From Candidatus Heimdallarchaeota archaeon B3_Heim (GTDB taxonomy: Archaea > Asgardarchaeota > Heimdallarchaeia > Hodarchaeales > Hodarchaeaceae): a stretch of DNA of 32,000 nucleotides. The notes below the pieces were generated by a model. It was given only the letters and a program-made list of their open reading frames with translations. It had not been told where the DNA came from and did not search any database. The position numbers and the translations under genes are program-made. Location: positions 30,001-62,000 of the forward strand of contig NJBF01000024.1 in NCBI GenBank assembly GCA_003144275.1. Direction: 5' to 3'. Below are positions 4,431-31,745 of the stretch, in pieces. Position 1 is the stretch's first letter. Every line of letters starts with the position of its first letter.

Positions 4431-6900
4431 TTCCATTGAAAACACATCATTAAAATCATTTCCAGAACTAAACAATGTCCCTTCAGATGAAAATTTCGAG
4501 TTTTGGCTAATCTGGCAGAGTGAATATAATGATTTTCTCAACGCCTCGGATGGAGTTTTAATCAATGGTACTCTCAATAATCATCCTGATGTTTATCTTT
4601 TCGATACTGATGCAAGTATTGGTAATCATTCATTTATTTTCTTCTATAGCGGAACAGCGATACTTACTTACAATTTAACGTTCATAATTGAAAACTATCT
4701 TAAACTAGAGTTCCTTATTCGCTTCAATGTCTATAATAGAACAATGATGATTGATAATGGGCTCTCTAATCCCATGAGTGGTCAAACCATAGATTTCCTA
4801 CAATACGGAGAATACTATTACTTTAGTGTTTTCATCAATGATAGTTCAACGAAATTACCTCTAAACACGACCATCCTAGACCTTCCTGATGGTGTAATTT
4901 TTCTTGATTATCCTACTGAAGGAAATCATTCTTTTAGGTATAATGCCTCAATAATCGGTAATTTTTCAAACTCAGTAATTGAATTTGCTTTACAAAATTA
5001 TAATACCTTACAATTCAACATATCTTTTATAGTCTCTCCACGTAATATGATATTAGATTCAATTAGGAGTACCCAACAATCTATTGATTATTTGCAGTAT
5101 GGAGATGTATTTTATTTCCTTGTATATATTAATGATAGTCGTACAGGAGCTCCTCTTAACATTTCTACCTTTAGTGAATTACCCCCGAACTTCTTCTTTG
5201 AAAATTTCTCTGTTACGAAAGGACACCTTTTCTGGTATCAAGCACTGGAAAGAGGAGATTTTATTTTCGAAATCAACTTTACCAAACAGAACTTTAACTC
5301 CTACCTTCATAATCTCATTTTCAATATTACAAAAGCCAATTCTGAACTAATTTCTTCCACCACCTCAATAACAACCTACTATTCAAATGATGTCGACTTC
5401 TCTCTGGTATGGCAATCTATTCCAAATCCAAATATAAGTTCAAGTCCAATACTAAGAATAATGAATACTAGCAGTATTATTATTCAACCCTCATCTCCAG
5501 AGTGGTTAAACAATATCATATTACATACATTGGAAAATGGTAATTATTCTTTTACTGTCCTCTCCAATCGAGTTGGTACTGTTGTTATTACAATCATTCC
5601 ATACTCCGACAATTACAATACAATTTCAATTGATATAGAAATAAACATACTACTTATGCCTACTTTCGATCCACAAATAAGTTTTCAGTCAGAGTTAGTT
5701 GTAGGTGAGTCATTGCTTATTTCATGTGATCAATGGAAATCTATCACTGACGTAAATGTTTCTATTGATAATTTTCAAATACTTAATAATAGTATATCAA
5801 TTGAGTATACTCCAGTTGATATAACTGAGTTTTCAATCGCTATTACACTCGATACTGAAGACTTTAGACAAGGATTCCATAACCTAACCCTTCTTGTTTC
5901 TAGTTATGGGTATGAAAACACTAGTTTAAGCATCTTTATTGAAATAATTGGCAGAGAAATCGAGATTGCAATTGAGATTTTTCCAGAAAATCTTAATCAA
6001 GGATCAGATTTCACGATTAGAGCTACACTGACATATGCTTCACTTCAAAGGGATTTAGGAGGGTTTGGCTCAGGAATATGCCTTGTACCTTTGAAAGGAG
6101 TTTCTGTATCATTTTTAGTCAATATTAAATACGAAAATGGCACTGTTCTTCCATTGGAGTATAATAATTATACAAATGCGTTAGGTGAAGCAGAATTTAC
6201 TGTGAATCGTATATATACCATTTCAGCTGTAGGAATAGAAAGTATTACAGTCACTTCAGGAGAAACAGCTTCAGGAAAAGGAAGTACTCAGTCTACTCCA
6301 CCTAATTTCTTTGATATGCACCAATTTGAAAAGAAAACTACTGAAATTCCTGAAGAGCTAATAATTTTAGGAATAATCGTCTTTCTGTTTGTCATCATCA
6401 TTGGATCTCCCATTGGTTTCTATACAATTCGAAAAAGAAAGAAAGGACAAAAAATCGTTAGTGATTCAAAAATCAAAATCTCTCCTAAACATACTCCAGA
6501 AGACCCTTCTGAAAAAGCTCCAGAGGTAACTCCAGCAATAAAAGAATTTGATGAAGCCAAAGTTCAGCCCCAGATAGAAGACAAAGTTGAAACTGAAAAA
6601 CGACAAACAAAACCCTCTCCCTGGATCGCTCAATTTCCCCCATCTGTTTCAGAGTGTGAAAAAGAAATTAGATATTTATTCATTCTAGTTTTAAGAAGGG
6701 AAGGTCAATGGCATGGAAGAACATCTTACAATTTCCTTCTTAAGAAGAGAACTGATGAGATTTCAGTAGCAAATCTAAGAAAGGTTTATACGATTCTTCC
6801 TCAACAAACAAGTTTTTTCAAGAAAGAAAAAACCTCGATTATTATCACAGAAGAGGGAAAAAGAGTAGCCTTAAGCATCTTAAAAAATAATGATCAGTAA
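1..6900 (+). CDS. Giant repetitive cell-surface glycoprotein (Ig-like tandem repeats, C-terminal TM helix, cytoplasmic tail with a wHTH-like domain); 5'-truncated by the window
   Basis: Frame 1 is open from base 1 (agt acg agt cta aca = STSLT, a repeat start), so the GTG at 16 is not the true start. The ORF has beta-rich repeats with about 11 N-x-S/T sequons each. A hydrophobic helix (LIILGIIVFLFVIIIGSPIGFYTI, ~6358-6429) is followed by RKRKK and a ~155-aa tail. Confidence 0.9.
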   Translation, partial: STSLTVNETTLVLTWRENTTLQIWYNDSANVPVSSASIIIDGDNAHPALYDPGSGAYYYQLNSTQYSGVGDYFNLNITAHRTYYQNQTLYFDLTIIPAGSSIDDASVNPVDYPLDITNGSVFSFWVTWFSEYGNPLNDSDGIGSSSSDVVLDSTNPTTGNHTFKFVPTTIGPINVTLTFQISNYNTAIYHINVTSIENTSLSANATTIVLNWRENTTLEIWYNNSFGSPIEDATLIVDGDTAHPAVFNYGTGTYYYQLNSTQYSGVGTYFNLNITANQTYYQNQTLYFDLTINPADSSINDSSVNPVDYPLDVTNGTAYYFWVIWFSEYGDPLNDSDGIGSSSSDVVLDSTNSVTGNHTFKFVPTTIGPINVTLTFQISNYNAAIFHINVTSIESTSLTVIETAIVLIWLENATLQIWYNDSSNTPINGATIIVDGDNIHPAIFNSSSGAYYYQLNSTQYNGVGSYLNLNITAYRTYYQNQTLYFDLTIDPADSSIDDASVDHGDYPLEITNGTAYYFWVIWFSEYGDPLNDSDGVESSSSDVVLDSTNPTTGNHTFKFVPTSIGPINVTLTFQISNYNAAFFNINITSIETTSLTVNETAIVLTWQGNTTLQIWYNNSRNKSIESAIISVNGDNQNVTYDSNSGAYYFQLNSTQYNGVGSYLNLVITANQTYHQNQTLYFNLTIIPADSSITDVSVDPVDYPLEITNGTAFYFWVTWLSEYGDPLNDSDGVGISSSDGILDSTNPTTGNHTFKFVPTTIGPINVTLTFQINNYNAAIFHINFTSIENTSLSANATTIVLTWRENTTLQIWYNNSANDPVPSAIIIINGDDTHPAVYDLGSGAYYYNLNSTQYSGVGTYLSLNITAYRTYYQNQTRYFDLTINPADSSVGDTSVDPLDYPLEITNGTAYYFWVTWFSEYGDPLNDSDGVESSSSDVVLDSTNPTTGNHTFKFVPTSNGPINVSLTFQISNYNAAIFHINVTSIESASLTVNETTIILTWQENTTLQIWYNDSRNNSIESALISVNGDGQNVSYDSNSGAYYYQLNSTQYNGVGDYLNLNITAYRTYYQNQTLYFDLTIKPADTSFDNASVDPVDYPIDVTNGSAYYFWVTWFSEYGDPLNDSDGVESSSPDVILDSTNPTTGNHTFKFVPTTIGPINVTLIFQISNYLTALFHINVTSIESTNLVVNETNIVLIWRENATLQIWYNDSAITPIPSATIIVGGDYAHPAVYDPGSGAYYYQLNSTQYSGVGTYLNLNITAYRSYYLNQTIYFDLTINPADSYIDTASIDPVDYPLDVTNGSAYYFWVTWFSEYGDPLNDSDGVESSSSDVVLDSTNPTTGNHTFKFVPTSNGLINVTLTFQINNYNTAIFHINVTSIESTSLTSNETSIVLNWRENATLQIWYNDSAITPIPSATIIIDGDYSHPAVYDPGSGAYYYQLNSTHYGGVGTYLNLNVTAYRTYYLNQTLYFDLIINQADSSIENTSLKSFPELNNVPSDENFEFWLIWQSEYNDFLNASDGVLINGTLNNHPDVYLFDTDASIGNHSFIFFYSGTAILTYNLTFIIENYLKLEFLIRFNVYNRTMMIDNGLSNPMSGQTIDFLQYGEYYYFSVFINDSSTKLPLNTTILDLPDGVIFLDYPTEGNHSFRYNASIIGNFSNSVIEFALQNYNTLQFNISFIVSPRNMILDSIRSTQQSIDYLQYGDVFYFLVYINDSRTGAPLNISTFSELPPNFFFENFSVTKGHLFWYQALERGDFIFEINFTKQNFNSYLHNLIFNITKANSELISSTTSITTYYSNDVDFSLVWQSIPNPNISSSPILRIMNTSSIIIQPSSPEWLNNIILHTLENGNYSFTVLSNRVGTVVITIIPYSDNYNTISIDIEINILLMPTFDPQISFQSELVVGESLLISCDQWKSITDVNVSIDNFQILNNSISIEYTPVDITEFSIAITLDTEDFRQGFHNLTLLVSSYGYENTSLSIFIEIIGREIEIAIEIFPENLNQGSDFTIRATLTYASLQRDLGGFGSGICLVPLKGVSVSFLVNIKYENGTVLPLEYNNYTNALGEAEFTVNRIYTISAVGIESITVTSGETASGKGSTQSTPPNFFDMHQFEKKTTEIPEELIILGIIVFLFVIIIGSPIGFYTIRKRKKGQKIVSDSKIKISPKHTPEDPSEKAPEVTPAIKEFDEAKVQPQIEDKVETEKRQTKPSPWIAQFPPSVSECEKEIRYLFILVLRREGQWHGRTSYNFLLKKRTDEISVANLRKVYTILPQQTSFFKKEKTSIIITEEGKRVALSILKNNDQ

Positions 6901-7368: not shown

Positions 7369-10300
7369 ATGACTCATTGGAAGAAGATAACTAAGAAATA
7401 TTTGCCTAACCTGTTAATCATTTCGTCATTAATAATAACAATCATACCAATAAATATGATAACATCAATTTATCTAATTGAAAGTGTAGAAAAGGATATT
7501 TATGGTAATTCGATCTTGAAGGGATCTGAAGGATTTACCAAGATTCCTAGATTGACACAAGAATCTTTTACCTACTTTTCTTATGGAGGTGAGGGAAGGG
7601 GTGAAAATCTTGACCTTTCTTCTCAACCTTTTAACAATAGATTACCAGATTTCGCTATTAGATCTCAAAAAGGGGAAGGTGGAAGCTCTTTCACAGTTGA
7701 AGATTATTTAACTCTAACGGGGAGTGATGCTGTTCCTGTAAATGATAATCATTGGCAAACAAATCCAGAAGAACATGAAGACCAGTATCCACTAACCATT
7801 CCAGCAAATTTTGTTAATTCTTCATTGACGCTGAACATTTCCGATGTCATAGCTATAGATGACTGGCGATTGATTGAAAATGACAGTGACTCAGCTGACC
7901 CCCGTACTTCCACAATTTTTTCTGAGTTTGCGCAGGAATTTGTGGTTGAGGAAGATTATGTTAACGTCTCCTCACTTCGCTTGTTCATCGATATGGATGA
8001 TACGGATGGGGGTGATGGGCAGAAACCCCATGGAAAGCTTTTACTTCTGAATGACACCTCAGGATCCCCTGATGATAGTGACGTGCTTCATAGTCAAGCT
8101 CTAGAAAGCCATTCCTCCATAGCGGGACTACTTGATGGAAATGATTGGGCAGGTTGGTTGGATTATTCTATTTCCCCCGAAGTGATTCTTCCGAAAGGAA
8201 CGTATTGGTTCGCTTTAAATGATACAAAGGATGGGGGTACGGGAAGCTGGAATTGGCACACCGTGGATGATAGTGGTCAAATCGATAATGGAGATGTCTA
8301 TTTCAAATTTGATCATGGAGATTCTTGGGGACCATATATCGCTTGTGATATCGTCATGATGCCCAAAGTCTGCCCAGTTAAGAATATCAGTTCCACCTAC
8401 CCAGCGAAAGAATATACTGATCCAACAGCGTTGGTATTTCAGTATAAAACATCAATTGACGCTACAAATTTGAGTACATTTACTATGTTCGAGGGAAATA
8501 TGACCAGTGATAACATACACACTTTTAATGTAAATACCTCTGTTAATTTCACGTTATCTTGGTGGATTGAAGTCAATTACACAAATAATCCTATTATCCC
8601 CTCAGTTCACTATTTTGTGGAAAACACAACAACATTACCAAAATGGAATCTTACTTTTGTTACAAATATTGTTTCTACAGTCTATAACATTCGAAATCGT
8701 TCCATAAATGTTTTTAATTTACCTAATGATTGGGCTGAAGGAGCAATTTTCCATGATGGTTCATTAGTTTATAATTCAACCAATTCTGGAGGATTTAATG
8801 GATCTATAGGTTATAATGATGGAGATAGTAACCTGATTGTCAACGCTTCTACTCTTTCTGGAACAAAAACCTGGGATATTTCCTTTAATGCACCTAATTA
8901 CATTACAGAGTTCAACTGGTTTGATCAGATTCTTGGATCAAATGTTACTTTCGCCACTTCTATGGATACACTTAAACCAAAAATTACATTTAAAACACCA
9001 AATGAAGGAGGGTATAATTTTAGTGTCTGGATTGAGTCTCAATCAGGAACGAGGATCTATACGGATTGTAATAAAACTGTGGGTGAGATAGCTAATGATT
9101 GGAACATTACGGAAACAACTGCATCGTTACCTGTAGTCAATGGAACTTATCAGACATATGCATTCTGGGAGAATACCACAGAAAATCAAGTGGGCTTCTA
9201 TGCTCGCAATATTACTGTTTTTATCCATACTACACCTATTATAAACGCCCCAACAGAGGTAATTGAAGATACTTCATTAGAGATTATAGTCTATTATAAC
9301 GCGACTCACAATTCAACTGGAGTAAATAATGCTAATGTGACTGGTATGCCAGATTGGGGGGATCAAAAACCCGTTCAATTTGAACATTCATATTCTCCTC
9401 ATGGATATTACAACTATACATGGGATATTAATAGTTCTCATTTAGCAGGCCAACAACTCAATATAACAATTTTTCTTGAAATGCCTTGGCATATAAACCA
9501 TACAGTTGTTTGGAATACAACTGTTGTCTATACCAGTACAATCACGGCATTAGATGTTCCAAATCCTTTGATTTTAGAATACGGACAGAGTTACCTTCTG
9601 AGAGTCAATTATTCATCGGGAACCACATTTATCTCTGGAGCTACTATGATTGTAGATGGAGATAATGAAAATTTTACAGAAGAACCGAAACATTTCTCCT
9701 ATCTGCTATACACAACAAATTACAATAGCGGGGAAAGTTATTCTAATCTACTTATTCACCTCAATAACTCGGGTTATCTTTCGCAAGAATTGTATTTCAA
9801 CTTGACCATCACGGCGGGGCCAACAAGTGTTCATCAGGCCTATACACCTATAATAGCCTCTATTTATTATACTGAGAGTTATTCATTTGCTGTGTTCTAT
9901 GAAAATACTGTGGATAATGAAGGAATCACAAATGCGGATTCTTCTACCAGTCATCCATCAGCGATTGATTTCTGGTATTCTAATTCAAGTGGATATTACT
10001 TTTTCAATTTGAGTTCAAGTTCGCTATCTCTAGGTTCTTATACAATTAACGTTACTCTTAATCATTCTATCTATCAAGAAAATTTCATATTACTGACATT
10101 CAACATTGTGGAAATGTCTACACAACCTTTAGATTCTTATAGTATTAGTAGTGATCAAATTATGGTAGAAGAAACCATTACAGTAACTATAGATGAGTTT
10201 CAAACTTACAAATCAGATAGCATTGGTACAATAGATAACGCATCAATTCTGTTAAATGGCTCCTCTGTTGATCCTAGTCTTGTTTCTTTTTCATCAAATG

Positions 10301-11658
10301 CTCCGTTTTCAATAGTACTAGACACAGCAGGTGTCCAATATGGAAAATACAATATGACGATCATTTTAAGCATTTATGGATATGAAAACCAAGCAATTTC
10401 ATTTAATGTTTCTATAGATGGATATGAAACAGAAATAAGTGTTGAAATAAAACCTGGAACGAACATCCGACAAGGTGAAGACATTATTTTTATTGCTACT
10501 TTAGCTTATGTCACTGAAGGTGGAGCTGGAGCGGGGGTCACTCAACAGGTTCCCCTAGGAAGAGTAATTATCACCTTTTATATTGTATTAGAATACGATA
10601 ATGGGACTACACAAATCTACGAGGGAACAGAACTGACTGATGATTCAAGTTATCGAGCTACGTACACTATTGATGGTATCTATACTATAGATGCTGTTAA
10701 ACTCACAAACATTACAATCCACTCATCTCCTGGCTTATCAGGCTTACCTTATACTTATAAGATGTCAGCTACTGAATTAGAAACCTATGAAATCCTTCCA
10801 CCAGCAATAGACATTTTTGAATTAATCACTACTGTTTTAATTGCTGTGGTAGTTGTATTGATCTCTTTAGTCATTGCAGTTAGCACTATTCGTGTATTTC
10901 GTCGTAGAAGAAGATCCCGTAAACAACTCATTTTAAGACATGATATTGCTGTTGAGCAAAGCTTTGAAGACATAAAATCGATTCGTTTAATTTTAGCTCG
11001 TCATCAATCAGGCTTACAATTCTATTCAGAAAAAACCATTGCTGAGCTCCAAACAGATACTGATGCTTTGTCTGGTATGAGTGCTGCTTTGTCCTCTTTC
11101 ATGGAAGAACTGTCAGAAAGCATGACTTCCCAGTCTGAGGAGGTAAAAGAGCGTGATAAAATTGAATTTCTCAGTCGTGAGGGTTTACACATGTTAATTT
11201 GGCACGGTAATCATTCCAGTTTTATCATTATCTCCGAGGTGCGATTACCTGAGTATTTCCAATCTCATTTGAAAGCTTTGGGAAACGAACTTGAGGATAA
11301 ATACACGGCTGAATTGCAAGACTTCTATAGCAGCGACCAAATCCCTAATACCGTTGTTAAGAAGATGGTAAGGAAGTATATCCCTCTCCACTACTTTTCT
11401 GCTTACGTAGCAAACGAAGGAGTTCTCACACTTGATTCTGTGAAGTTATCACGAAAACAGGCTAAGATGTTCAACGAAATTAAGAAGGTGATGTTTAAAA
11501 TTGAAGGAGCCCATTATTTCTTCTCTGAACAAATTATTTCGCATCTTTCCAAACGGTATAAACGTAGTGAAGCCATAGAATTCCTGGATCAGGCGATTAA
11601 AATCAATCTACTTATTGAAGCTGAACAAGAAGATTTACTGCAGTTGACTAAACTTTGA
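7369..11658 (+). CDS. Large single-pass membrane glycoprotein with Ig-like ectodomain and cytoplasmic longin-like plus probable wHTH domain
   Basis: N-terminal hydrophobic signal/anchor; sequon-rich ectodomain; TM helix LITTVLIAVVVVLISLVIAVSTIRVF (~10822-10899) followed by RRRRRSRK. The cytoplasmic LILARHQSGLQFYS...DALSGMSAALSSFMEEL...IEFLSREGLHMLIWHG..SSFIIIS pattern is typical of longin/roadblock-type folds. Confidence 0.8.
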   Translation: MTHWKKITKKYLPNLLIISSLIITIIPINMITSIYLIESVEKDIYGNSILKGSEGFTKIPRLTQESFTYFSYGGEGRGENLDLSSQPFNNRLPDFAIRSQKGEGGSSFTVEDYLTLTGSDAVPVNDNHWQTNPEEHEDQYPLTIPANFVNSSLTLNISDVIAIDDWRLIENDSDSADPRTSTIFSEFAQEFVVEEDYVNVSSLRLFIDMDDTDGGDGQKPHGKLLLLNDTSGSPDDSDVLHSQALESHSSIAGLLDGNDWAGWLDYSISPEVILPKGTYWFALNDTKDGGTGSWNWHTVDDSGQIDNGDVYFKFDHGDSWGPYIACDIVMMPKVCPVKNISSTYPAKEYTDPTALVFQYKTSIDATNLSTFTMFEGNMTSDNIHTFNVNTSVNFTLSWWIEVNYTNNPIIPSVHYFVENTTTLPKWNLTFVTNIVSTVYNIRNRSINVFNLPNDWAEGAIFHDGSLVYNSTNSGGFNGSIGYNDGDSNLIVNASTLSGTKTWDISFNAPNYITEFNWFDQILGSNVTFATSMDTLKPKITFKTPNEGGYNFSVWIESQSGTRIYTDCNKTVGEIANDWNITETTASLPVVNGTYQTYAFWENTTENQVGFYARNITVFIHTTPIINAPTEVIEDTSLEIIVYYNATHNSTGVNNANVTGMPDWGDQKPVQFEHSYSPHGYYNYTWDINSSHLAGQQLNITIFLEMPWHINHTVVWNTTVVYTSTITALDVPNPLILEYGQSYLLRVNYSSGTTFISGATMIVDGDNENFTEEPKHFSYLLYTTNYNSGESYSNLLIHLNNSGYLSQELYFNLTITAGPTSVHQAYTPIIASIYYTESYSFAVFYENTVDNEGITNADSSTSHPSAIDFWYSNSSGYYFFNLSSSSLSLGSYTINVTLNHSIYQENFILLTFNIVEMSTQPLDSYSISSDQIMVEETITVTIDEFQTYKSDSIGTIDNASILLNGSSVDPSLVSFSSNAPFSIVLDTAGVQYGKYNMTIILSIYGYENQAISFNVSIDGYETEISVEIKPGTNIRQGEDIIFIATLAYVTEGGAGAGVTQQVPLGRVIITFYIVLEYDNGTTQIYEGTELTDDSSYRATYTIDGIYTIDAVKLTNITIHSSPGLSGLPYTYKMSATELETYEILPPAIDIFELITTVLIAVVVVLISLVIAVSTIRVFRRRRRSRKQLILRHDIAVEQSFEDIKSIRLILARHQSGLQFYSEKTIAELQTDTDALSGMSAALSSFMEELSESMTSQSEEVKERDKIEFLSREGLHMLIWHGNHSSFIIISEVRLPEYFQSHLKALGNELEDKYTAELQDFYSSDQIPNTVVKKMVRKYIPLHYFSAYVANEGVLTLDSVKLSRKQAKMFNEIKKVMFKIEGAHYFFSEQIISHLSKRYKRSEAIEFLDQAIKINLLIEAEQEDLLQLTKL

Positions 11659-12904: not shown

Positions 12905-12926
12905 TCACATTAAAGGTTGATTGTTC

Positions 12927-14156
12927 ATGCGTGTGTTACATGTTCAAGGAAAAAAACTAGTTGAAATAAACAAGAAAAATGGATCCTTTGAATTCTTGAA
13001 TGGGGACGTATATATCATTGATAATTCTGATGTCTCCGCAGGCCTCAAGAAAAAGGTGTTCATCTGGTTAGGATCTCAAGCATATGCTGATGATAGAGCA
13101 GTTGGTGCTTGGGCTGCAAAACAATTGGATCTCGCTGATAAAGAAATAGATATCGACACTGAAGTCGAAGGAAATGAATCAGCTGAGTTTAAAGGATTAT
13201 TAGAATTCGTAGTCGTGACAGGAGACACACCTGGCTTTCTAAAGCACGTAGAAGTAAATAAAGAAGACATTAGCTATGCTCTTTACAGAGTCCGTGATAC
13301 TGATCTTTCAGATGGTTCATCATCAGATGATATAGCAATTGAAAAAGTACCTTTGAACCGTGAAAGCTTTGTCTCTGATGACGTATTTGTATTGGATGCT
13401 TTCGATGATCTGTATGTCTGGGTTGGTGCCAGCTCACAGATCGGTGAAAAAGTTGCAGGAAATCGTGTGGCACGGAAATTAGATGTAGATCGTGATAGAA
13501 CCCCCATGGTTTACCAAATTAGAGAAGGGTACGAACCAGAGGGTTTTTGGGATCTTTTTAATTCCATAAGCAGCAGTGGTTTAACACGGAAAGACGATTC
13601 ATCTGCTATTAGTGCAAGTATGAGTGGTTCTCTTACTGATCTAACTGCTCCAGTAGAACCAGCAACACCTCCTGCTGAATTAGCTCCTCCACCTTCTAGT
13701 ACTTCAACAGGTGAAATTTCAGGTCCACCACGAGAAGAACAATACGTTCCAAAACCTCCTCCAATAAAAGATGAACCTAAACCAAAACCCGAACCTACAC
13801 CCCAACCAGTTCAGACTGGTTTCGGAGTAGCGCCCACAGCCCCCGTACCATCTAGAAAGACCCAATATACTTTATATTATGTCGACGGTGAATTTACTGA
13901 ATTAGGGGGAAGTGAATCTGCAACTCTTGAGATCAATGAGTCCACAAAGACAGCTGTTCTTTCATTTGCGGGGGGGTCAAGTTTAATAGCCCAAAGAACT
14001 GCTGGCCGCCAAGCACGAGGTATTTGTAAATCAGGTTTCGCTGTTAAGGCAGGTTACAGAATTGGCATAAAATGTGACCTTCAAGAAGTTCGTGGGGAAG
14101 AGGACATGGAACAGCGAGTTCAAAGATATAGAGAAGAAGGACGCAAATACGTTTAA
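12927..14156 (+). CDS. Gelsolin-family actin regulator: two gelsolin domains, Pro-rich linker, degenerate third gelsolin-like domain
   Basis: Domain 1: FLNGDVYIID...VFIWLGSQA...EVEGNESAEF. Domain 2: SFVSDDVFVLD...LYVWVGASS..GEK...REGYEPEGFW. The ATG at 12927 is preferred to the TTG at 12921 in the ORF track. Confidence 0.88.
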   Translation: MRVLHVQGKKLVEINKKNGSFEFLNGDVYIIDNSDVSAGLKKKVFIWLGSQAYADDRAVGAWAAKQLDLADKEIDIDTEVEGNESAEFKGLLEFVVVTGDTPGFLKHVEVNKEDISYALYRVRDTDLSDGSSSDDIAIEKVPLNRESFVSDDVFVLDAFDDLYVWVGASSQIGEKVAGNRVARKLDVDRDRTPMVYQIREGYEPEGFWDLFNSISSSGLTRKDDSSAISASMSGSLTDLTAPVEPATPPAELAPPPSSTSTGEISGPPREEQYVPKPPPIKDEPKPKPEPTPQPVQTGFGVAPTAPVPSRKTQYTLYYVDGEFTELGGSESATLEINESTKTAVLSFAGGSSLIAQRTAGRQARGICKSGFAVKAGYRIGIKCDLQEVRGEEDMEQRVQRYREEGRKYV

Positions 14157-18347: not shown

Positions 18348-19136
18348 TTAGATGTACGTTTTATCTGGTTTACCGATTTGTTTTTCATCATCAACCGCAG
18401 CACTAGCTTGTCCTCTCATCGATAGGGCTAATTGTTCAATTTTTTCAGCCTGAGCTAGAATTGGTTCTATCCCAATATTTAACGATGGAACTAGTTGATT
18501 TAAAACTTCAATAATACGGGCAGCTGTTCGTATTTCAGGATAATGTTGCCGTACTTCCCCCAATAAAACGATAACCTCAGATTTATTGAACCAACCTTCA
18601 TTAAGTAATACCGCACTTAACCCCTTAATCACACCATGATTCAAGGGGGGGATTTGTTTAGAGTCCAATATCGCTCTACATGAATCAGTTGTTCCCACTC
18701 CGAAAAGTTTCACAGGTAATTGCTGTGGAGAATGTGCTTGTTCACTAACAAATCCTTCTATGGATAATATTCGACTGATTCCTTTCTCTTTTGCCCAGTT
18801 AAAAATTTTTCTTCCAATTTCACGAGTAATGGGAGCATACTGGGGTATCTCTGAGGCAAGAAGAGCGATTTTAATATCTTCATTTTTATTCGCATAAATG
18901 CGTATAGGAAATTTGGGTCTATTGAAATATACCATACAAACTGAGGGTAATTGACTACTATCTCCTACAGCCACCTGATCATAATTCCAATGTTCTGGTC
19001 TCCCACCAGCCTCTAGAATTATGTTAGCAACTATCAAAGCTAAACTACTTGTTGAAGGAAAACACTCAATTAGGGTTCCTCCAGCTAGGTCAATATCTGC
19101 AATGTCTCGTATCTCAAAATCATGAATAGCTTGCAT
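18348..19136 (-). CDS. PAC2-family proteasome assembly chaperone (PbaA/PbaB-like)
   Basis: GGTLIECFPS, P.FPIRIYA, LLASEIP, ILSIEG, FGVGTT, G.I.GLSAVLL...VIVLLGEV..HYP..R.AA. Confidence 0.85.
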   Translation of the reverse strand: MQAIHDFEIRDIADIDLAGGTLIECFPSTSSLALIVANIILEAGGRPEHWNYDQVAVGDSSQLPSVCMVYFNRPKFPIRIYANKNEDIKIALLASEIPQYAPITREIGRKIFNWAKEKGISRILSIEGFVSEQAHSPQQLPVKLFGVGTTDSCRAILDSKQIPPLNHGVIKGLSAVLLNEGWFNKSEVIVLLGEVRQHYPEIRTAARIIEVLNQLVPSLNIGIEPILAQAEKIEQLALSMRGQASAAVDDEKQIGKPDKTYI

Positions 19137-19217: not shown

Positions 19218-21443
<2,226 letters not shown>

Positions 21444-24630: not shown

Positions 24631-26802
24631 TTACTTCTTTTTCATGGACTGTTTTTTATTCCGAATTTTAATGCCCTGAAAGGCATCAACCAGCGTTTCA
24701 TATAGTAATTCAATCAATAGCGGTATTTCTGTCTCAGAGAAACCTAGGGCTCTAGCAATTGCTATATCCAAATTTTCTCTCTTACTTTCATATATTTGGT
24801 CTGGAAGGGCCTTTACTTTTTCGGATCTGAGAATATCAAATGCCTCTAAAATATATTTTATGTCATTTGAGGAGCATTGAGAAATATCTAGGAAGATTTT
24901 CTCTCTCATATAATCAATGATTTGTAAACGACCATATGAACCACTAATCTCCCTTCTACTATTAATAAAGAGCAAAAAATAAAACGATGAATTCAACCAC
25001 GCCCCCAAAAATTTAGATTGGTGGTGATTTTTGTCAGTTAAGACGAAAAAATTCTTAGAAGCAGTTTTCTTCTCATCTAAGAAGAGTACATTATTAGTTG
25101 CACTAGTCAATCCAAATTTATCAACAAAGAACAGATATCCCCAAGGTTTCTTTGTCGTTAATTGATCTTCAAGATGATTTATCCATCTGGTTTTGAATTT
25201 CTTCCTTGCTGGATTCGCGTAATCTTGAGTTTTCCTAATATAAGTTTTCACTGGAGAAGTTAACTGATTTAATGGCTCTGAGACAGAAAGCGCATAATCT
25301 GCAATAGTTGGTGTTATGTACCCTTGATAATTACTCTGTTTACGTAAAGCGCTTACTAGATATTTCTCTGGTAGAATTAATTTTTCTTCTCTTGATATTA
25401 ATTCATAACCTTCATTTTTCTTCACAATTTGTGTCCAGATTTTATTTGGTAAGAAAAAGAAACCAGGACCATACATTTCAACCCCCCGTACGATCTTTAG
25501 ATCTAACTCTTCACCAGATCTTATTTTATTAGTTTTTAACAATTTCTGCCTTAGATCTAATATGTTTTCACTGTGAAAGTATCTCATCCAATTCCATTCA
25601 TTAAGCAGGTGTTTGGAATGAATTAATCGCGTAGATGAGATATTTTGTTGATTTTTTATAGAATTTCCGCAAATAAGAGAAAACTTAATCCCGTAATGAT
25701 TATCAGATGTTCGTTTAGTAGCAACTAAGATCAGTTCTTTGAAATCACTGCCTTCAGAAAAAGATTTAATCTCATCGGAAGTAAGAATTGAGTCAATTTC
25801 ATATTTTGACATCAAATAATTTTGAATACCTTTGGAATAATTTGACAAAAATGTTGATACAGGTAATATTGCACTCAGCGTTCCTCCATGTTTGAGAATC
25901 TGATCTGCTAGAAGAATAGAGTAAATGTGCAGTCCTGGTTGTCCAATTAGATATTTAATGTATTTTTGTATGAGGGGAACTAATACCTTTCTTTGACTGT
26001 CATCAATTCTGTGTGTTCTCGTGAAGGGGGGATTCATTAATACTAAATCAAAATCATTATCAAATGGTAACGAATTACTTCTCAATCTTGTTGGTAATCT
26101 TCTAAAAGCATCACCTATGGTCGCAATAAGTATACTAGGATCCAAATTATGTTTTTGCAATTTGATTAATATTCGAGAATATGCAATTACTACGGCAGAA
26201 GGAACAAGATCATTAATCCAAATAAGACTCGGAAAATTCATAGACATATTTTTTTCTTCTAAATAGGCCGAAATTAATCTTCCTGATCCACAAAACGGAT
26301 CTATGATTTTGGTAAACGACTTCTCCGTAAGATTTGAACAGATAATTCGTGCGGAGGGTAGTGTAGTATAATTAGCCGCTAATTTTTTCCGATAATTTCG
26401 TTCTAACGCATTCTGCACAATTGTACCAAAGATGTCACCATTGAGAATAGGTTCAATTTCTAGCGAATGGGGGGTGAAAAGAGAAAGGTCTTGTTTCAAA
26501 TCGGCCAGATAACTGAACACTTCTTTCAGAAATTTCCATAACGATATATTTTTTTCATATTTCCTTTCTAAAAATCTTAAACTCTCCATAACTGGTTCAT
26601 AATTATTTATCCTATCATTCTCTTTTATCAGTGATTTTATTATCCATAATCCTAAAGAAATAGAAATGATCAGTTCTTCTTTCGTTGAAATCAATTTTGG
26701 TAAAGAATCAAATCGCTTTTTATCATCAAAGGATTTAATCCAGTCATTGACATCCCTTTCTAATGAATTTTCAAACAATTCTGGATCTTGAATGCATTCC
26801 AC
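24631..26802 (-). CDS. N6-adenine DNA methyltransferase (gamma class, with C-terminal specificity region)
   Basis: DIFG......RKKLAANYT, motif I IIDPFCGSGRL, motif IV VLMNPPF, in gamma order, followed by a long TRD-like region. Confidence 0.85.
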   Translation of the reverse strand: MECIQDPELFENSLERDVNDWIKSFDDKKRFDSLPKLISTKEELIISISLGLWIIKSLIKENDRINNYEPVMESLRFLERKYEKNISLWKFLKEVFSYLADLKQDLSLFTPHSLEIEPILNGDIFGTIVQNALERNYRKKLAANYTTLPSARIICSNLTEKSFTKIIDPFCGSGRLISAYLEEKNMSMNFPSLIWINDLVPSAVVIAYSRILIKLQKHNLDPSILIATIGDAFRRLPTRLRSNSLPFDNDFDLVLMNPPFTRTHRIDDSQRKVLVPLIQKYIKYLIGQPGLHIYSILLADQILKHGGTLSAILPVSTFLSNYSKGIQNYLMSKYEIDSILTSDEIKSFSEGSDFKELILVATKRTSDNHYGIKFSLICGNSIKNQQNISSTRLIHSKHLLNEWNWMRYFHSENILDLRQKLLKTNKIRSGEELDLKIVRGVEMYGPGFFFLPNKIWTQIVKKNEGYELISREEKLILPEKYLVSALRKQSNYQGYITPTIADYALSVSEPLNQLTSPVKTYIRKTQDYANPARKKFKTRWINHLEDQLTTKKPWGYLFFVDKFGLTSATNNVLFLDEKKTASKNFFVLTDKNHHQSKFLGAWLNSSFYFLLFINSRREISGSYGRLQIIDYMREKIFLDISQCSSNDIKYILEAFDILRSEKVKALPDQIYESKRENLDIAIARALGFSETEIPLLIELLYETLVDAFQGIKIRNKKQSMKKK

Positions 26803-27040: not shown

Positions 27041-28828
27041 ATGCTAAGTCTGAAATCAGCAATTTATATAATCATAGTCAGTATTATATCGGCTAGCTTA
27101 GTCTCCTCATTGGTAGTAATGAATACATTGTCAACTTCCTCACTCCCAACTGAAATTGAGGACAATGCCGAGGATAAGTTACTTATTACAACCACAATTC
27201 AAGCCCGTCAAATTGCCTCACAATTGGGCAGAACGGAATCTGTTATCAACGCGATGAGTGCTTTTGCAGAGCAAATATGGACTGATACTACGATTCCTGA
27301 CATTCCTAGTTTTTATCATGACGAAAACGTGCTTAATAACCCTCCAACCGATGTTTATTATGATGAGGTTTACGAGCGAAGACTTTCTCATCTCTACTCG
27401 GGTTATAAGATCGCCCCAACAGCATTTGAGGAATCATATCAAGACAGTTATTTAACAAGTATTCAAGAAACTGAAAATCCTTTATCACACATTAACAGTA
27501 CGGTGATGGCTGCAATCAACCGTTCAGCAAAAATGGACATGGTTTTCCGACAGCTCTATGAGGCTTATCCAGAACATGTTTGGCTCTATATGGGGTACGA
27601 GTATGGCTTTCATAGATCTTTTCCCTGGCATGGGCCATATTCTCGTACTTATGATCCAAGGACACGTCCTTGGTATATCGGAGCAATTACTGGAGCGAAA
27701 GATGCGGTTATCATCATGGATATAAGCGGAAGCATGCAGGGTACTCCACTTACAAATACCAAAACTGCAATGAAATCCGTACTGAAAACATTAGGACCTA
27801 AGGATCGATTTACTGTTCTCTCTTTTTCTGCCGATGTAGATGAGTGGGACAATACTTTACAAATCGCTTCTCCTTCAAATATCAATGATGCCTCTTCTTA
27901 CATCGATGATCGTAGCTCGGGAGGAAACACAAATATTAATAGCGCACTTCTAGAAGGTCTTGAAATTTTAGAAAAACATGGAACCTCTGATCGCACACCC
28001 ATGCTTATATTCATGACTGATGGTGAAGCGACCTCAGGCATAACAGAATCTGATTTAATATTATCTAACGTCGCTACTGCGAATGTAATGGGAGCTAGAA
28101 TGTTTGTTTTTGGATTAGGTACTGAAATTGATCAACAGCTCTTACTAAACCTTGGATCTCAAAATGATGGAGGGACAGTTTTTGTGTTCGATTCTGAAGA
28201 TCTAACAGATGCTATGAACCTTTATTATAAATTTTTTACCTCACAAATTGATAATGCTATTAGTTGGTCATGGCCTTACGTAGATGCGAGTGGTTGGGGT
28301 ATAGTAATAACTGCTTCCAAGCCAGTAACAGTTAATGGTACTCTATTAGGAGTCGTTGGAGCAGATTTAACTCTCAATTCACTCATAGACACACTTGCAG
28401 ATTTACAGCCTTCAGATAATGGTTACAACTTCATCTTTGATACAGGTAATATAGCTCTAATCCATCCTAGCTTTACCGATCTACCTATTGGAGATTGGCA
28501 AGAAGAAGAAGTAAGAGTACCTATTTCTACATTGGAAAGTTCCTCAAATAGCTTTATCTCTCTAGTTGATCGTGTTAATCTTGGGATCCCTACAGCAGGT
28601 ACAGTCTATTATGGTACCGAAAAACGTGTTGTGGCAATGGCTCCAATTGGAGAAACTTCCATGCACTTAGCTTCTGTAGCCCCAATCTTAGAATTTCTTG
28701 ATCCAACAACCATTACTGCATTAAAAGGAGTTAGCACCTTCGCTCTGCTTTGGCTTGGAGGCAGTATTTCTGTAGGTACAATAGCTGCACTAGTATTAGT
28801 GATAAAATTCAAGGAGGACTTTCATTGA
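27041..28828 (+). CDS. Membrane-anchored dCache_1 protein with inserted VWA domain (alpha2delta/CACHD1-like)
   Basis: TM at both ends. YDPRTRPWY (27650) runs directly into a VWA domain (KDAVIIMDISGS MIDAS, GGNTNI, FMTDG), after which dCache resumes (SWSWPYVDASGWGIVITASKPV...GVVGADL, GYNFIFD..G.ALIHP). Confidence 0.9.
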   Translation: MLSLKSAIYIIIVSIISASLVSSLVVMNTLSTSSLPTEIEDNAEDKLLITTTIQARQIASQLGRTESVINAMSAFAEQIWTDTTIPDIPSFYHDENVLNNPPTDVYYDEVYERRLSHLYSGYKIAPTAFEESYQDSYLTSIQETENPLSHINSTVMAAINRSAKMDMVFRQLYEAYPEHVWLYMGYEYGFHRSFPWHGPYSRTYDPRTRPWYIGAITGAKDAVIIMDISGSMQGTPLTNTKTAMKSVLKTLGPKDRFTVLSFSADVDEWDNTLQIASPSNINDASSYIDDRSSGGNTNINSALLEGLEILEKHGTSDRTPMLIFMTDGEATSGITESDLILSNVATANVMGARMFVFGLGTEIDQQLLLNLGSQNDGGTVFVFDSEDLTDAMNLYYKFFTSQIDNAISWSWPYVDASGWGIVITASKPVTVNGTLLGVVGADLTLNSLIDTLADLQPSDNGYNFIFDTGNIALIHPSFTDLPIGDWQEEEVRVPISTLESSSNSFISLVDRVNLGIPTAGTVYYGTEKRVVAMAPIGETSMHLASVAPILEFLDPTTITALKGVSTFALLWLGGSISVGTIAALVLVIKFKEDFH

Positions 28829-30084
28829 AATCATACTATGGGTTCTCACGTTTCTTGGAAGATTCTGAAGATTGGAAAGCTATTATGGGTGGGTTGCTAG
28901 TAGCGATTATTATTATTTCTACTGCTTGCGTTGGCATTTTTATTCTTAGTTCTCAACAAGCAATGATTTTGGAAGATACCCCACTCCGACAGGTAGAAGA
29001 TTTGCTTCATAACCAAGCAATAGAAAGCGCAGAATCTCTAGATGTGTTTTTTTCACGAATTGAAGGAATTACTAAGGTTGTTGGTGACTATGCTACCCAA
29101 TTGTGGGAAAAAAATGACTCTACTGGAAGACCAGTTTATTATCATAATTCAACATTTAATGCACCAACAGACTTCACTTATTCAGCTAAGCATTTCCAGG
29201 GTGTATCCTATACTTTTTCTGGTTATAAAGTCGCTCCCTCTGCTTACAACAACCAAAGTGATTACCTCACCCTAGCTGACGACCAAACTTTTGGTGATTG
29301 GTCTCCAGAAGTTACTCATACAATCAATCTATCAGCTGATATGGACTTCGTATTCCAACCTATGTATCAATCAATGGATGAAATTCTTTGGATTTACATG
29401 GGGACAGAGGTAGGTGTCCATCGATCTTATCCATATCACGGACCTTATAGCAAAGATTACGACCCCCGAATACGTTTATGGTATTTAACAGCTCTAGATA
29501 CAGCTACAGGAAAAGTAGCCTTTACGACGCCTTACGTCGATGCCAGTTCTGGAAAAGTAATTGTCACTAGCTTATATCCAGTTCGAGATCAGAGTGAGAC
29601 AACTATTGGAGTTGTAGGAATTGATTTCAAACTTACTACTATTCAATCAGCTGTAATGGAGATCAGTGTACGGAAAACTGGTAGAGCTTTTTTAATAAAT
29701 CGAGATTTTGAGGTACTAGCCCATCCTGCTCATACCTTACCAAACGCTACATGGCGAGAAACAGATCTCCAGGTACCTATTACAACGTTAGAGACGAATA
29801 ATGAAGAATTCCTTGATATTCTGGACCAAGCTCGAAATTACATTACAGTCCAAGAAATAATTGATTATGGTGGTTCCCTAGGAAAACAAATAGTTTCTTT
29901 GGTACCAATGAACAAAACTGATTTAATTCTCGGTTTAGCTCTTACACAACATGATACAACTGCCCCAACGGTCAAAATCTTTGAAAATTTCTTCTTTCTT
30001 GGACTAATAGCGATAGATATTGTGTTAGGGGTTGTAGTTGTAGCAGCATTTATTCAATATCGAAAGCTAGCTCACGAAATGTAA
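28825..30084 (+). CDS. Membrane-anchored dCache_1 amino-acid-sensor-type protein without VWA and without cytoplasmic output domain
   Basis: YDPRIRLWY-x-TTPYVDASSGKVIVT...GVVGIDF, GRAFLIN....VLAHP; TM at both ends. The likely start is the TTG at 28825, overlapping the upstream TGA (TTGA), with AGGAGG at 28812-28817. The ORF-track start at 28750 is unlikely. Confidence 0.88.
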   Translation: MKSYYGFSRFLEDSEDWKAIMGGLLVAIIIISTACVGIFILSSQQAMILEDTPLRQVEDLLHNQAIESAESLDVFFSRIEGITKVVGDYATQLWEKNDSTGRPVYYHNSTFNAPTDFTYSAKHFQGVSYTFSGYKVAPSAYNNQSDYLTLADDQTFGDWSPEVTHTINLSADMDFVFQPMYQSMDEILWIYMGTEVGVHRSYPYHGPYSKDYDPRIRLWYLTALDTATGKVAFTTPYVDASSGKVIVTSLYPVRDQSETTIGVVGIDFKLTTIQSAVMEISVRKTGRAFLINRDFEVLAHPAHTLPNATWRETDLQVPITTLETNNEEFLDILDQARNYITVQEIIDYGGSLGKQIVSLVPMNKTDLILGLALTQHDTTAPTVKIFENFFFLGLIAIDIVLGVVVVAAFIQYRKLAHEM

Positions 30085-30275
30085 AAGATGGATTTAAGAA
30101 ATAAGATCAGAATTACTAGTACTGAAGAGTGAAGTTACATCGTAGAGTTAGATATGAGAAACCGCTCTCATTAAACAGAATCTTATGGTTAGAAACTGAA
30201 TCTAATTCAAAAAAACTTCCAAAATTGATCACATCCCAAATCAAAATTCCATAAAGGGAATTGGGTTGTTCAGGA

Positions 30276-31745
30276 ATGGCAAAGAAGTATTATTGTGGCC
30301 TTTGCGAGACCAGTCATAATGCCCTAAAATCAAGACATCAGTGTAACCAATGTGCTCGTTTCTACTGTGATTCAGCACTAGAGGATGCACGAACAGTTGG
30401 TGTTACAACCTGCGTTTTTTGCGAAGGAAAATTATCTCCATTTTTTCTTACAACGAGCTTACAATATCTTGCGGAAGATAAAAGAGTAGTGGATTCTGAG
30501 GGGAATAGTGAGGATACAACAAGTTATTCAGAATTCAGTTTAACTCAAGAAAATCTGGAAATTTCTTCTGAATCGGCCACATTTCCTTCATATAATATTG
30601 AGATTGATCAAAGGGATTTGGAAATAATCTGGCTGCTGCAAGAAATAGTTGCCAAAGAGATTCCTTTAATAGAAAATGAAGATCTCATCCAAACAAATTC
30701 TGGATTCATTGTCAAAAATCAGCGTATCGTTGGTTTAAGCCTTTTCAAACTAGAGATAAGGCGAGTTCCTGTTGAGATTGGAGAATTAACAGAGTTAGAA
30801 AGGTTATTTTTACGAGAGAACAGAATTGATAAATTACCTGACTTGAGTAGTCTAAAGATCTTGCAAGAACTAGATCTAAGCTATAATCAATTAAGAGAAT
30901 TACCTGCTACTCTGGGTGATATCCCCTCCCTTACTACTCTGATTTTGAACAATAACCGACTAAAGAAAATTCCTATTTCTCTCACTAGCCTACAACTGAA
31001 GAAATTAAATTTGCAGGATAATCCTTGTTGGAATCATCAGCCTCGTAGTCGAAAATTGCAGCGTTGGATAGATAATTTAGTAAGTAATGGTTGTGAAGTA
31101 TTCGATACTCCTAGAGATGGTGAATACCTAAATATTGTCTTATCCCCAAGTGAAGTGGAATTCTTAGAAGAGATAGAACGATTAATTGATAAACAAATAA
31201 CGCATTCAGAAACAGCTGTCAATATATTAAATTTAGAACAATTAAAGAATTTTAAATTTGGATTTTGTTCTTCGTTCGAGAGAATTAAAGCTTTAGGATT
31301 AGGAAACCTAGGCCTTTCAACTTTACCACGTTCCATTCAGGGTTTAAATGCTATTGAAATGATAAATTTATCTCAAAATCGTTTTAGTCAACTTCCACTA
31401 GAATTATTTACCTTGGTGTCCTTACAAGGACTCAATTTAGAAGATAATATACTCGATACACTTGATAGCGGGATTAGAAGTTTAACAGAATTAAAAATAT
31501 TAGATCTACAAACGAATAATCTTAAACGAGTACCCAAATCGTTAGGAAATTTAAGAAAACTTGAAATTCTTATCTTGAAAGACAATGATCTTATATCACT
31601 TCCTTCTTCCCTTAAAGATCTTCAAAACCTCAAAATGATCGATCTTCGTGGGAATCCTATATGGAATGAACGAGAAGATCGGCGTGAATTACAAAAATGG
31701 ATTCGTGACTTAAAAAAACGACATTGTGAAATTGTAGGTTTATGA
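30276..31745 (+). CDS. Leucine-rich repeat protein with N-terminal RING-like zinc finger; two LRR modules
   Basis: CGLC-x12-CNQC-x4-CDSA-x11-CVFC, then LxxLxLxxNxLxxLP repeats in two blocks, each closed by L.(D/G)NP.WN...R.LQ.WI..L....CE. ATG 30276 is preferred to TTG 30261. Confidence 0.88.
   Translation: MAKKYYCGLCETSHNALKSRHQCNQCARFYCDSALEDARTVGVTTCVFCEGKLSPFFLTTSLQYLAEDKRVVDSEGNSEDTTSYSEFSLTQENLEISSESATFPSYNIEIDQRDLEIIWLLQEIVAKEIPLIENEDLIQTNSGFIVKNQRIVGLSLFKLEIRRVPVEIGELTELERLFLRENRIDKLPDLSSLKILQELDLSYNQLRELPATLGDIPSLTTLILNNNRLKKIPISLTSLQLKKLNLQDNPCWNHQPRSRKLQRWIDNLVSNGCEVFDTPRDGEYLNIVLSPSEVEFLEEIERLIDKQITHSETAVNILNLEQLKNFKFGFCSSFERIKALGLGNLGLSTLPRSIQGLNAIEMINLSQNRFSQLPLELFTLVSLQGLNLEDNILDTLDSGIRSLTELKILDLQTNNLKRVPKSLGNLRKLEILILKDNDLISLPSSLKDLQNLKMIDLRGNPIWNEREDRRELQKWIRDLKKRHCEIVGL

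Follow-up and report, generated by a model that had tools for sequence, protein, structure and literature searches.

We analysed a window of 32,000 nucleotides (nt) from Candidatus Heimdallarchaeota archaeon B3_Heim (assembly GCA_003144275.1, contig NJBF01000024.1, positions 30,001 to 62,000), in which two adjacent genes, here called gene A and gene B, have open reading frames (ORFs) that together fill positions 27041-30084 of the forward strand. Both encode membrane-anchored proteins with a double-Cache domain (dCache_1), and that of gene A is interrupted by a VWA domain, as it is in the eukaryotic alpha2delta and CACHD1 proteins. The features of the pair, in window positions, are as follows.

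27041..28828, forward strand: gene A, 595 amino acids (aa); a transmembrane (TM) helix, a dCache_1 domain with inserted VWA and a second TM helix; alpha2delta/CACHD1-like (from ORF, Pfam, phmmer and Foldseek analyses)
27650..27676, forward strand: N-terminal half of the amino-acid motif of A; Y204, R209, W211 and Y212, matching PctA Y121, R126, W128 and Y129 by alignment column
27695..28228, forward strand: VWA domain, A residues 219-396, within the distal module of dCache_1 (limits from the family hidden Markov model)
28277..28366, forward strand: C-terminal half of the amino-acid motif of A, downstream of the VWA; Y413 and D442, matching PctA Y144 and D173 by alignment column
28812..28828, forward strand: coupling signal; AGGAGG at 28812-28817, and the TTG start of B at 28825-28827 overlapping the TGA stop of A at 28826-28828
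28825..30084, forward strand: gene B, 419 aa from the TTG; a TM helix, dCache_1 without VWA and a second TM helix (from ORF and Pfam analyses)

The junction of the two genes reads AAGGAGGACTTTCATTGAA, with a spacing of 7 nt from AGGAGG to the TTG start of B. The frame that contains B is open from 28750, and the TTG at 28825 is the start that makes biological sense; this overlapping start is favored over an internal ATG because similarity begins at residue 1 of B in three same-genus relatives. In each of the two proteins a hydrophobic helix lies near either terminus, and no cytoplasmic tail exceeds 20 aa; the C-terminal TM helix ends both archaeal chains, leaving tails of ~7-9 residues after it. 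BLASTP aligned both flanks of the A insertion with B (i.e., A1-223 with B21-231 at 35% identity, E 2e-33, and A385-590 with B209-409 at 26% identity, E 1e-19), so that B corresponds to A minus the VWA. A preliminary description of this DNA had proposed these domain layouts, the TTGA overlap, the AGGAGG Shine-Dalgarno sequence and the paralogy of A and B, and it proved correct in every detail that could be checked by ORFs, sequence, Pfam and BLASTP; the two peptides it had quoted for the paralogy are indeed found in the A and B sequences. A sigma-70 promoter and terminator scan, for which the sigma-70 model is ill-suited to an archaeon, revealed nothing beyond shuffled expectation.

Pfam analysis of A detected VWA at residues 221-388 (PF00092, E 2e-18), a VWA_N-like segment at 153-195 and the rear part of dCache_1 at 399-545. 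The dCache_1 score of A (PF02743, 36.2 bits) falls under the 45-bit gathering score because the VWA splits the domain; once the VWA was excised, A aligned to positions 11-329 of the 341 positions of the B-family dCache profile with 225 bits. A carries the complete amino-acid motif (AA_motif) of the dCache_1AA subclass, a motif defined on PctA Y121, R126, W128, Y129, Y144 and D173, and its halves are parted by the VWA in the same manner as described for alpha2delta-1 (Gumerov 2022, PMC8915833); ligand binding by A is, at this stage, a prediction. The metal-ion-dependent adhesion site (MIDAS) of the VWA is intact (D227, S229, S231), and across 18 family members D227, S229, S231 and D327 of this DxSxS ... 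T ... D site were invariant, and T326 nearly so.

Consistently, comparison with solved structures placed A next to the eukaryotic proteins. A phmmer search of the PDB aligned A152-484 in one stretch with alpha2delta-1 176-533 (E 7e-18), across VWA_N, VWA and Cache, and matched CACHD1 with E 8e-21. The AlphaFold (AF2) model of A (predicted local distance difference test [pLDDT], 87.5; predicted template modeling score [pTM], 0.79) was used in a Foldseek search of the PDB, in which the top 14 matches were all alpha2delta-1 or CACHD1 (E to 1.6e-32, TMq 0.58-0.65, ~560 columns), and VWA-only proteins ranked next, from ~E 2e-16. More specifically, the distance between the W-Y of the motif and the MIDAS Asp was 14 residues in all 14 archaeal proteins and 14-15 residues in 65 of the 66 eukaryotic proteins compared, archaeal and eukaryotic proteins have the insertion junction YDPRxRPWYvxAxxGxKDvvxxxDxSGS in common, and both flanks of the insertion align between the archaeal protein P0016 and the eukaryotic protein P0068 (see below). 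Thus, the same insertion point and junction, the same motif split, the intact MIDAS and the Foldseek matches demonstrate true homology of A with the dCache_1(VWA) module of eukaryotic alpha2delta and CACHD1 proteins, and the VWA insertion, as one homologous insertion event, links A to the eukaryotic first dCache. The alpha2delta-type insertion claimed for A in the preliminary description is borne out by phmmer, by Foldseek, and by junction and spacer alike.

Solved alpha2delta and CACHD1 chains (PDB 8fd7_D, 7vfs_B, 8s7c_A and 9eq6_A) resemble A in that the VWA interrupts the distal module of dCache_1 at the same loop and with the same junction motif, in the split of the amino-acid motif, in the intact MIDAS and in the fold match over the whole chain; moreover, they possess a second dCache, as does the archaeal system in the form of gene B or of the second half of P0016. 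In contrast, alpha2delta and CACHD1 carry both dCache domains on one polypeptide, where the window has two genes and a single chain is found only in the rare P0016. The archaeal chains have two TM helices each and are free of cysteine, whereas the eukaryotic proteins, which contain cysteine, have a signal peptide and either a glycosylphosphatidylinositol (GPI) anchor or a single TM helix, and the VGCC_alpha2 region of alpha2delta was not detected in a Pfam scan of A and B. Finally, the archaeal pair has the amino-acid motif in both pockets, whereas alpha2delta-1 has it in the first dCache only and in CACHD1 it was mapped only in the C-terminal dCache (PMC8915833).

The dCache_1 domain of B is uninterrupted (59.2 bits against the 45-bit gathering score of PF02743) and has a complete AA_motif (Y212, R217, W219, Y220, Y237 and D267), from which ligand binding is again only predicted; because the full motif is kept in both proteins, both pockets probably bind amino acids or similar amines. 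The top PDB sequence match of B was PctA (E 1.5e-15), PctA-type receptors in general being its best matches among solved structures. Like the bacterial dCache_1AA receptors PctA, PctB, PctC, CtaA and Mlp24, A and B combine the double-Cache fold, the Y-R-W-Y ... Y ... D motif and a TM-dCache-TM order. Unlike these receptors, A and B lack output domains of the HAMP, MCP, kinase or cyclase kind, A has the VWA, and in both proteins an additional stretch of ~70-90 residues, with the motif Y-K-[ILV]-A-P-x-A-[FY], follows the stalk helix and precedes the distal module. This motif also occurs in some eukaryotic first and second dCache domains (d1 and d2, respectively). We rejected 'AP-x-A-Y-N-N' as a marker of B and the second dCache of P0068, because it proved to be a looser motif that A and B both have and that recurs in some d1 and d2 domains of eukaryotes.

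The nearest prokaryotic relatives of the B dCache are Heimdall HAMP/TPR-VWA dCache proteins. In the Heimdall class these occur as tandem pairs, in which a protein of ~885-922 aa (TM, dCache_1, TM, HAMP, TPR, VWA) is followed by one of ~467-494 aa (TM, dCache_1, TM, HAMP), and similar 900/500-aa pairs are present in at least 8 genomes. Representative loci are the following.

L029:2687-6939, reverse strand: Heimdall HAMP/VWA tandem pair
L030:3302-7568, forward strand: Heimdall HAMP/VWA tandem pair
L032:3715-7788, reverse strand: Heimdall HAMP/VWA tandem pair

As with A and B, two adjacent paralogous dCache membrane genes are involved, one of which has a VWA. In these pairs, however, the VWA is C-terminal and cytoplasmic, after HAMP and TPR, and is not inserted in dCache as in A; HAMP is present in both partners, and the motif position equivalent to R126 is often Glu.

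A synteny survey revealed that the A-then-B order recurs well beyond the window. We found it in 4 of 22 genomes of the window's own genus, at L118 (whose A is 54% identical to that of the window), at L116 (48%) and at L037 on a 180-kb Planctomycetota contig, as well as in a deep, strongly diverged clade (22-31% identity) from other families of the class (L127-L129, L027 and L028). B-family proteins share contigs with A-family proteins throughout. At 11 loci, the stop codon of A shares bases with the start codon of B or lies close to it (ATGA, GTGA or TTGA in 9, TAATG in 1, and TAA plus 3 nt plus ATG in 1), and a GGAGG-type Shine-Dalgarno sequence lies a few bases upstream of the B start in 11 of 11. 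The translational coupling put forward in the preliminary description is upheld, and the pairing of A with B is conserved in relatives. At L025:1808-3595 (G004:C161), from a metagenome-assembled genome (MAG) of the same genus, the A orthologue is split by an in-frame TGA into ORFs of 195 and 370 aa beside an intact B, which represents either a pseudogene or an assembly error.

The structure of an A-B complex was predicted from A28-565 and B42-390. The model reached an interface score (ipSAE) of 0.74 (three runs, 0.72-0.76), relative to 0.00 for the best of three controls; among solved complexes 58 of 80 attained that mark, and among mismatched pairs 2 of 110 did so, counts that are rough because our own family alignments were used. 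At least 80% of contacts were common to the three runs, with partner pLDDT of at least 84. The predicted interface consists of the stalk helices (A42-86 and B56-103) and a helix that precedes the distal module (A167-176 and B172-184), and corresponds to the classical dCache dimer face. An A-B interface is thus predicted by the multimer model, which supports, but does not show, binding of A to B. Alternatively, A and B might each form homodimers like ordinary dCache receptors, with the overlap merely securing co-expression: canonical stalk helices are on offer in any dCache pair, and homodimers are common among solved bacterial dCache sensor domains. However, gene order, stop/start overlap and Shine-Dalgarno sequence have remained fixed while A diverged to ~26% identity, and A-type and B-type domains have been covalently fused on two independent occasions, so that we consider separate homodimers unlikely.

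Fused versions, which the preliminary description had proposed as an object of the synteny survey, do exist. P0016 (993 aa, from a European Nucleotide Archive [ENA] metagenome) joins A-type and B-type ectodomains with no TM helices between them and ends in a zinc ribbon on the cytoplasmic side of its single, C-terminal TM helix. In P0026 (863 aa), an A-type domain without VWA is linked to a B-type domain, and two TM helices are kept between; because this protein groups with the Planctomycetota A (support, 100/96), its lineage either lost the VWA or never had it. The two fusions constitute support for A-B pairing that is independent of the complex model. A profile search run exhaustively over 1.84 billion representatives yielded 690 proteins at E <= 1e-30, and among the best 150 of these 690 the only prokaryotic chains with two dCache domains were P0016 and P0026, the others checked being eukaryotic (e.g., Pharyngomonas and an MMETSP protist).

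P0016 is collinear with P0068 over 772 columns (28% identity, E 5e-58), half to matching half. P0068 (987 aa) is encoded on a eukaryotic metagenomic contig, where its neighbors include Tim17, a C2-domain kinase and a GT22 glycosyltransferase. As in P0016, the protist alpha2delta-like proteins P0068 and P0293 and P0294 of Pharyngomonas kirbyi have the amino-acid motif in both halves and a C-terminal TM anchor; relative to P0016, their alignment suggests that they lack the long helix between the halves and have extra N-terminal helical sequence, and their cysteine content is 1.0-1.8%, as opposed to none in the A family. In the model of P0016 (pTM 0.54; pLDDT of the second half, 73), the B stalk helix (587-621) sits between the halves, whereas in the nested topology of alpha2delta the first dCache comes after the stalk helix belonging to the second (PMC8915833). 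P0016 is therefore an independent end-to-end tandem fusion rather than the nested alpha2delta form, in a comparison that takes the eukaryotic topology from the publication and that of P0016 from the model.

Together, these data lead us to propose, with a probability of roughly 60%, that A and B together form a two-subunit complex of the alpha2delta type that is anchored in the membrane, faces the cell exterior and serves in sensing and adhesion. In such a complex, coupled translation would supply A and B in matched amounts, and each chain, as its sequence shows, crosses the membrane twice with almost nothing in the cytoplasm. A pseudo-symmetric dCache dimer is predicted, in which the long stalk helices bring the ectodomains together; one or both distal pockets may bind amino acids or related amines, and the VWA of A with its intact MIDAS might, by analogy with alpha2delta, hold a protein partner or surface ligand via a metal ion. 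Because there is no cytoplasmic output domain, a signal would have to go through the membrane helices to another membrane protein; the complex may therefore act via such a protein, or else as an adhesion or capture device. Relatives offer hints as to the output, i.e., a co-operonic receptor Ser/Thr kinase in the Planctomycetota, a polytopic protein of 710 aa (protein X) in the deep clade, and the tails of B, cytoplasmic tails having been added to B at L116, in the deep-clade B' proteins and in P0016.

Several points weigh against this proposal. Amino-acid binding, metal-dependent binding and heterodimerization are all predictions, and the score of the complex may partly come from the model's memory of solved dCache dimers or alpha2delta. 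The model of P0016 aligns with alpha2delta-1 over ~960-990 columns (E 2e-41), yet with a template modeling score of 0.42-0.46 and a root-mean-square deviation of ~19 A, such that the alpha2delta-like arrangement of the halves is not reproduced. The pair is patchy within its own genus, and the zinc-finger and leucine-rich-repeat (LRR) gene that follows B in the window is not beside the pair at L116, L118, L037 or L033, its conservation being confined to the genus. Furthermore, a search of the window's genome with deep-clade X as query gave no match, and no output partner was found here.

The loci of the deep clade are L127:3874-9944, L129:1545-7368, L027:4790-11375, L028:4227-10635 and L128:1261-7394. 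Four of them form a coupled operon of X, an A-like gene and B', in which B' (631-883 aa) comprises a TM helix, dCache, a TM helix and a tail; at L128, X lies upstream on the opposite strand. Protein X (~710 aa, 5-9 predicted TM helices, 30-32% identity between loci) matched no Pfam family and nothing in the atlas; it could be the membrane protein with which the alpha2delta-like pair associates. In the deep clade, the two g6 A-like proteins that were checked have a degraded amino-acid motif. At L118:10462-11800, genes for an Arf/Ras-family small GTPase and a receiver-domain protein come after the A-B pair in the same orientation and might act in downstream signaling.

The preliminary description had further read A plus B as a split alpha2delta that is possibly in a pre-fusion state. 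Of this interpretation, the A module, the pairing, the predicted interface and the fusions are borne out; the ancestry it implies is neither supported nor excluded, and P0016 is tandem and not nested. To build a dCache tree, the VWA was excised and the domains were aligned to the B-family profile, giving 157 distal-module core columns and 156 rows. In this tree, the A family formed a clade (97/99) to which the Planctomycetota A and the first half of each fusion belong, and the B family a clade (100/99) that takes in both second halves and the Planctomycetota B. Likewise, eukaryotic second dCache domains formed one clade (100/98) and eukaryotic first and single dCache domains another (97/82), and the four clades sit on a backbone without resolution. 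With these 157 columns, the approximately unbiased (AU) test rejected none of four groupings: relative to the free tree, the log-likelihood (lnL) was 1.1 higher when A was held with eukaryotic d1 (p-AU 0.50), 0.16 lower when B was held with eukaryotic d2 (p-AU 0.50), 8.1 lower when A was held with B (p-AU 0.43) and 4.9 lower when eukaryotic d1 was held with d2 (p-AU 0.44). In profile comparisons, eukaryotic first domains scored 13 bits better with the A profile than with that of B (30 of 35), and eukaryotic second domains did not favor the B profile (-1.1 bits; B preferred by 21 and A by 15). Thus, of the suggested correspondence between A and B and the first and second eukaryotic dCache, the first part is favored by the profiles, and a match of B to the second dCache was not shown by trees, AU tests or profiles.

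This absence of a B-profile preference also bears on a plausible alternative, to which we give somewhat less than even odds, namely, that only A descends together with alpha2delta, that B stems from a Heimdall-specific dCache radiation, and that the eukaryotic second dCache arose by a separate duplication, the likeness in layout then being parallel and not a pre-fusion state. In a reduced tree to which the deep-clade B' was added, B, B' and the Heimdall HAMP/TPR-VWA dCache proteins came together (87/80), and a 78/83 split set eukaryotic d1, d2 and single rows plus three bacterial rows apart from the archaeal and the other seven bacterial rows, as this alternative would lead one to expect. Tandem dCache gene pairs are, moreover, a general habit of the class, and the tandem build of P0016 departs from the nested eukaryotic topology. 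Nevertheless, the AU test rejects neither B with eukaryotic d2 nor A with eukaryotic d1, the groupings of A with B and of d1 with d2 cost somewhat more likelihood than these two, and the whole signal comes from 157 columns only.

That A and B are the direct prokaryotic ancestor of alpha2delta appears doubtful to us. On this account, a VWA would have been inserted in an Asgard dCache_1AA domain before eukaryogenesis, A would have become the first dCache(VWA) and B the second, and the A ectodomain would have been joined into B; if this were true, the pseudo-dimer within every alpha2delta subunit would be the fossil of an archaeal heterodimer. In the VWA tree, the A-family VWA stands beside the eukaryotic alpha2delta VWA with weak support (19-70), and a strict Asgard-eukaryote clade costs 47.7 lnL (p-AU 0.10), which is not decisive.

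Transfer in the direction of the archaea is a further alternative, in which the A family came horizontally from an early eukaryote with a single dCache(VWA) protein as donor, and B is a duplicate of A minus the VWA. Single dCache(VWA) proteins are abundant in eukaryotes and common in protists (PMC8915833 and our profile search), the pair is patchy in the genus, A and B are close paralogues of each other, and the family is clearly mobile, since it reached bacteria. Even so, we judge this origin quite improbable. The A clade and the eukaryotic clade of first and single domains are reciprocally separate, with A nested in no eukaryotic subgroup, and an A-like gene with a dCache partner occurs in three families of the class, including the deep clade at 22-31% identity. 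In addition, A-family ectodomains contain no cysteine at all as compared with 1.0-4.4% in the eukaryotic proteins, and B is nearer to the Heimdall HAMP-type dCache than a recent copy of A that had lost its VWA would be.

In a sample of 301 species-level Asgard genomes, full-length A-like genes were present in 12, all of them in the window's class (Heimdall/Hodarchaeota in public records). By family, they were found in 3 of 20 genomes of f1 plus the window's own genome, in 7 of 11 of f5 and in 1 of 3 of f7, and in 0 of 76 and 0 of 68 genomes of the two largest families. Close relatives of A occur in MAGs labeled Candidatus Hodarchaeota or Heimdallarchaeota. The window's class contains the proposed closest relatives of eukaryotes. 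The family does sit in Heimdallarchaeia, as the claim of a lineage closest to eukaryotes had it. The module is also present on two bacterial contigs and hence not exclusive to Asgard archaea.

The first of these, L037, lies on contig C140 of an 8.7-Mb Planctomycetota MAG (G041); an ECF sigma-70 gene is found on the same contig, whose GC content (38-40%) is near that of the other sampled contigs of the MAG (35-39%). The operon at L037:4893-10110, whose genes all overlap by 4 nt, encodes an A of 631 aa, a B of 414 aa and a receptor Ser/Thr kinase of 694 aa; the last has its kinase domain in the cytoplasm, a single TM helix and, outside the cell, three repeats that bear a YEPNN...EDWF signature. 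The second is the contig of P0026 (L034:2619-5210), which has a GC content of 53% and on which the fusion gene adjoins a sigma-70 gene. Because both bacterial copies nest within the crown of the A and B clades of the dCache tree, transfer from archaea to bacteria fits better than the reverse; the module at L037 looks like a horizontal transfer, with a plausible output kinase. A pattern scan of the genome contigs, in which the A-family alignment supplied only the generic amino-acid motif, returned mostly ordinary bacterial dCache receptors and contributed only the Planctomycetota locus and STK-dCache outgroups.

Gabapentin and pregabalin act on alpha2delta subunits, and CACHD1 serves the Wnt pathway as a co-receptor. 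The eukaryotic proteins are characterized by their partners, a CaV alpha1 channel for alpha2delta and Frizzled/LRP6 for CACHD1, and by alpha2/delta cleavage. The only scenario for the origin of alpha2delta that we found in the literature searched is that of Gumerov et al. 2022 (PMC8915833), in which a bacterial dCache_1AA domain was transferred to eukaryotes, and VWA insertion and nesting of the second dCache took place around the last common ancestor of eukaryotes (LECA). The insertion was dated to LECA because all VWA-inserted dCache proteins then known were eukaryotic, every eukaryotic dCache_1 protein having a VWA inserted in one dCache_1 domain (PMC8915833). Our literature search retrieved no report of a prokaryotic VWA-inserted dCache and no relevant one on dCache, Cache, VWA or alpha2delta in Asgard archaea, which by itself does not prove that none has been published; the earlier archaeal reports of VWA-inserted dCache proteins that the preliminary description had mentioned were not found there. 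As A shares its insertion event with eukaryotic alpha2delta and CACHD1, the insertion architecture is present in Heimdall-class prokaryotes and need not have arisen at LECA. In the A/B pair, the alpha2delta/CACHD1 architecture takes a prokaryotic form made up of two genes, and a VWA within dCache is no longer exclusive to eukaryotes. The origin of alpha2delta thereby becomes testable, given the same insertion, site and junction in prokaryotes together with a dedicated dCache partner and occasional fusions. The small, cysteine-free ectodomains, presumably expressible in bacteria, could serve as a model for cooperation between the split amino-acid pocket and the MIDAS, and for the role of the module before calcium channels existed.

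Immediately downstream of the pair lies one further gene on the same strand.

30261..31745, forward strand: zinc-finger and LRR gene encoding a soluble protein; probable start, ATG at 30276; LRR_8 with E 5e-20 and a weak Prok-RING_2 match

This gene also follows B on the same strand at L024, L025 and L026 (96, 58 and 50% identity, respectively). Upstream, an Eco57I-type restriction-modification methylase gene (24631-26802, reverse strand) diverges from gene A; the region may be variable, because of this methylase neighbor and because the pair is present in just 4 of the 22 genus genomes. The window also holds genes of eukaryotic character that are usual in Asgard archaea, i.e., a gelsolin-repeat gene (12921-14156, forward strand), a PAC2 proteasome-assembly chaperone gene (18348-19136, reverse strand) and Cdc48 (19218-21431, reverse strand). 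Two giant ORFs on the forward strand, at 1-6900 (at least 2299 aa, running off the window start) and 7369-11658 (1429 aa), had no convincing Pfam family, their sole Pfam match being a short, low-complexity-looking one to Nup96. Among the matches listed for this DNA, none was RNA; all were DNA contigs from marine-sediment and cold-seep metagenomes, with a word share of at most 0.27.

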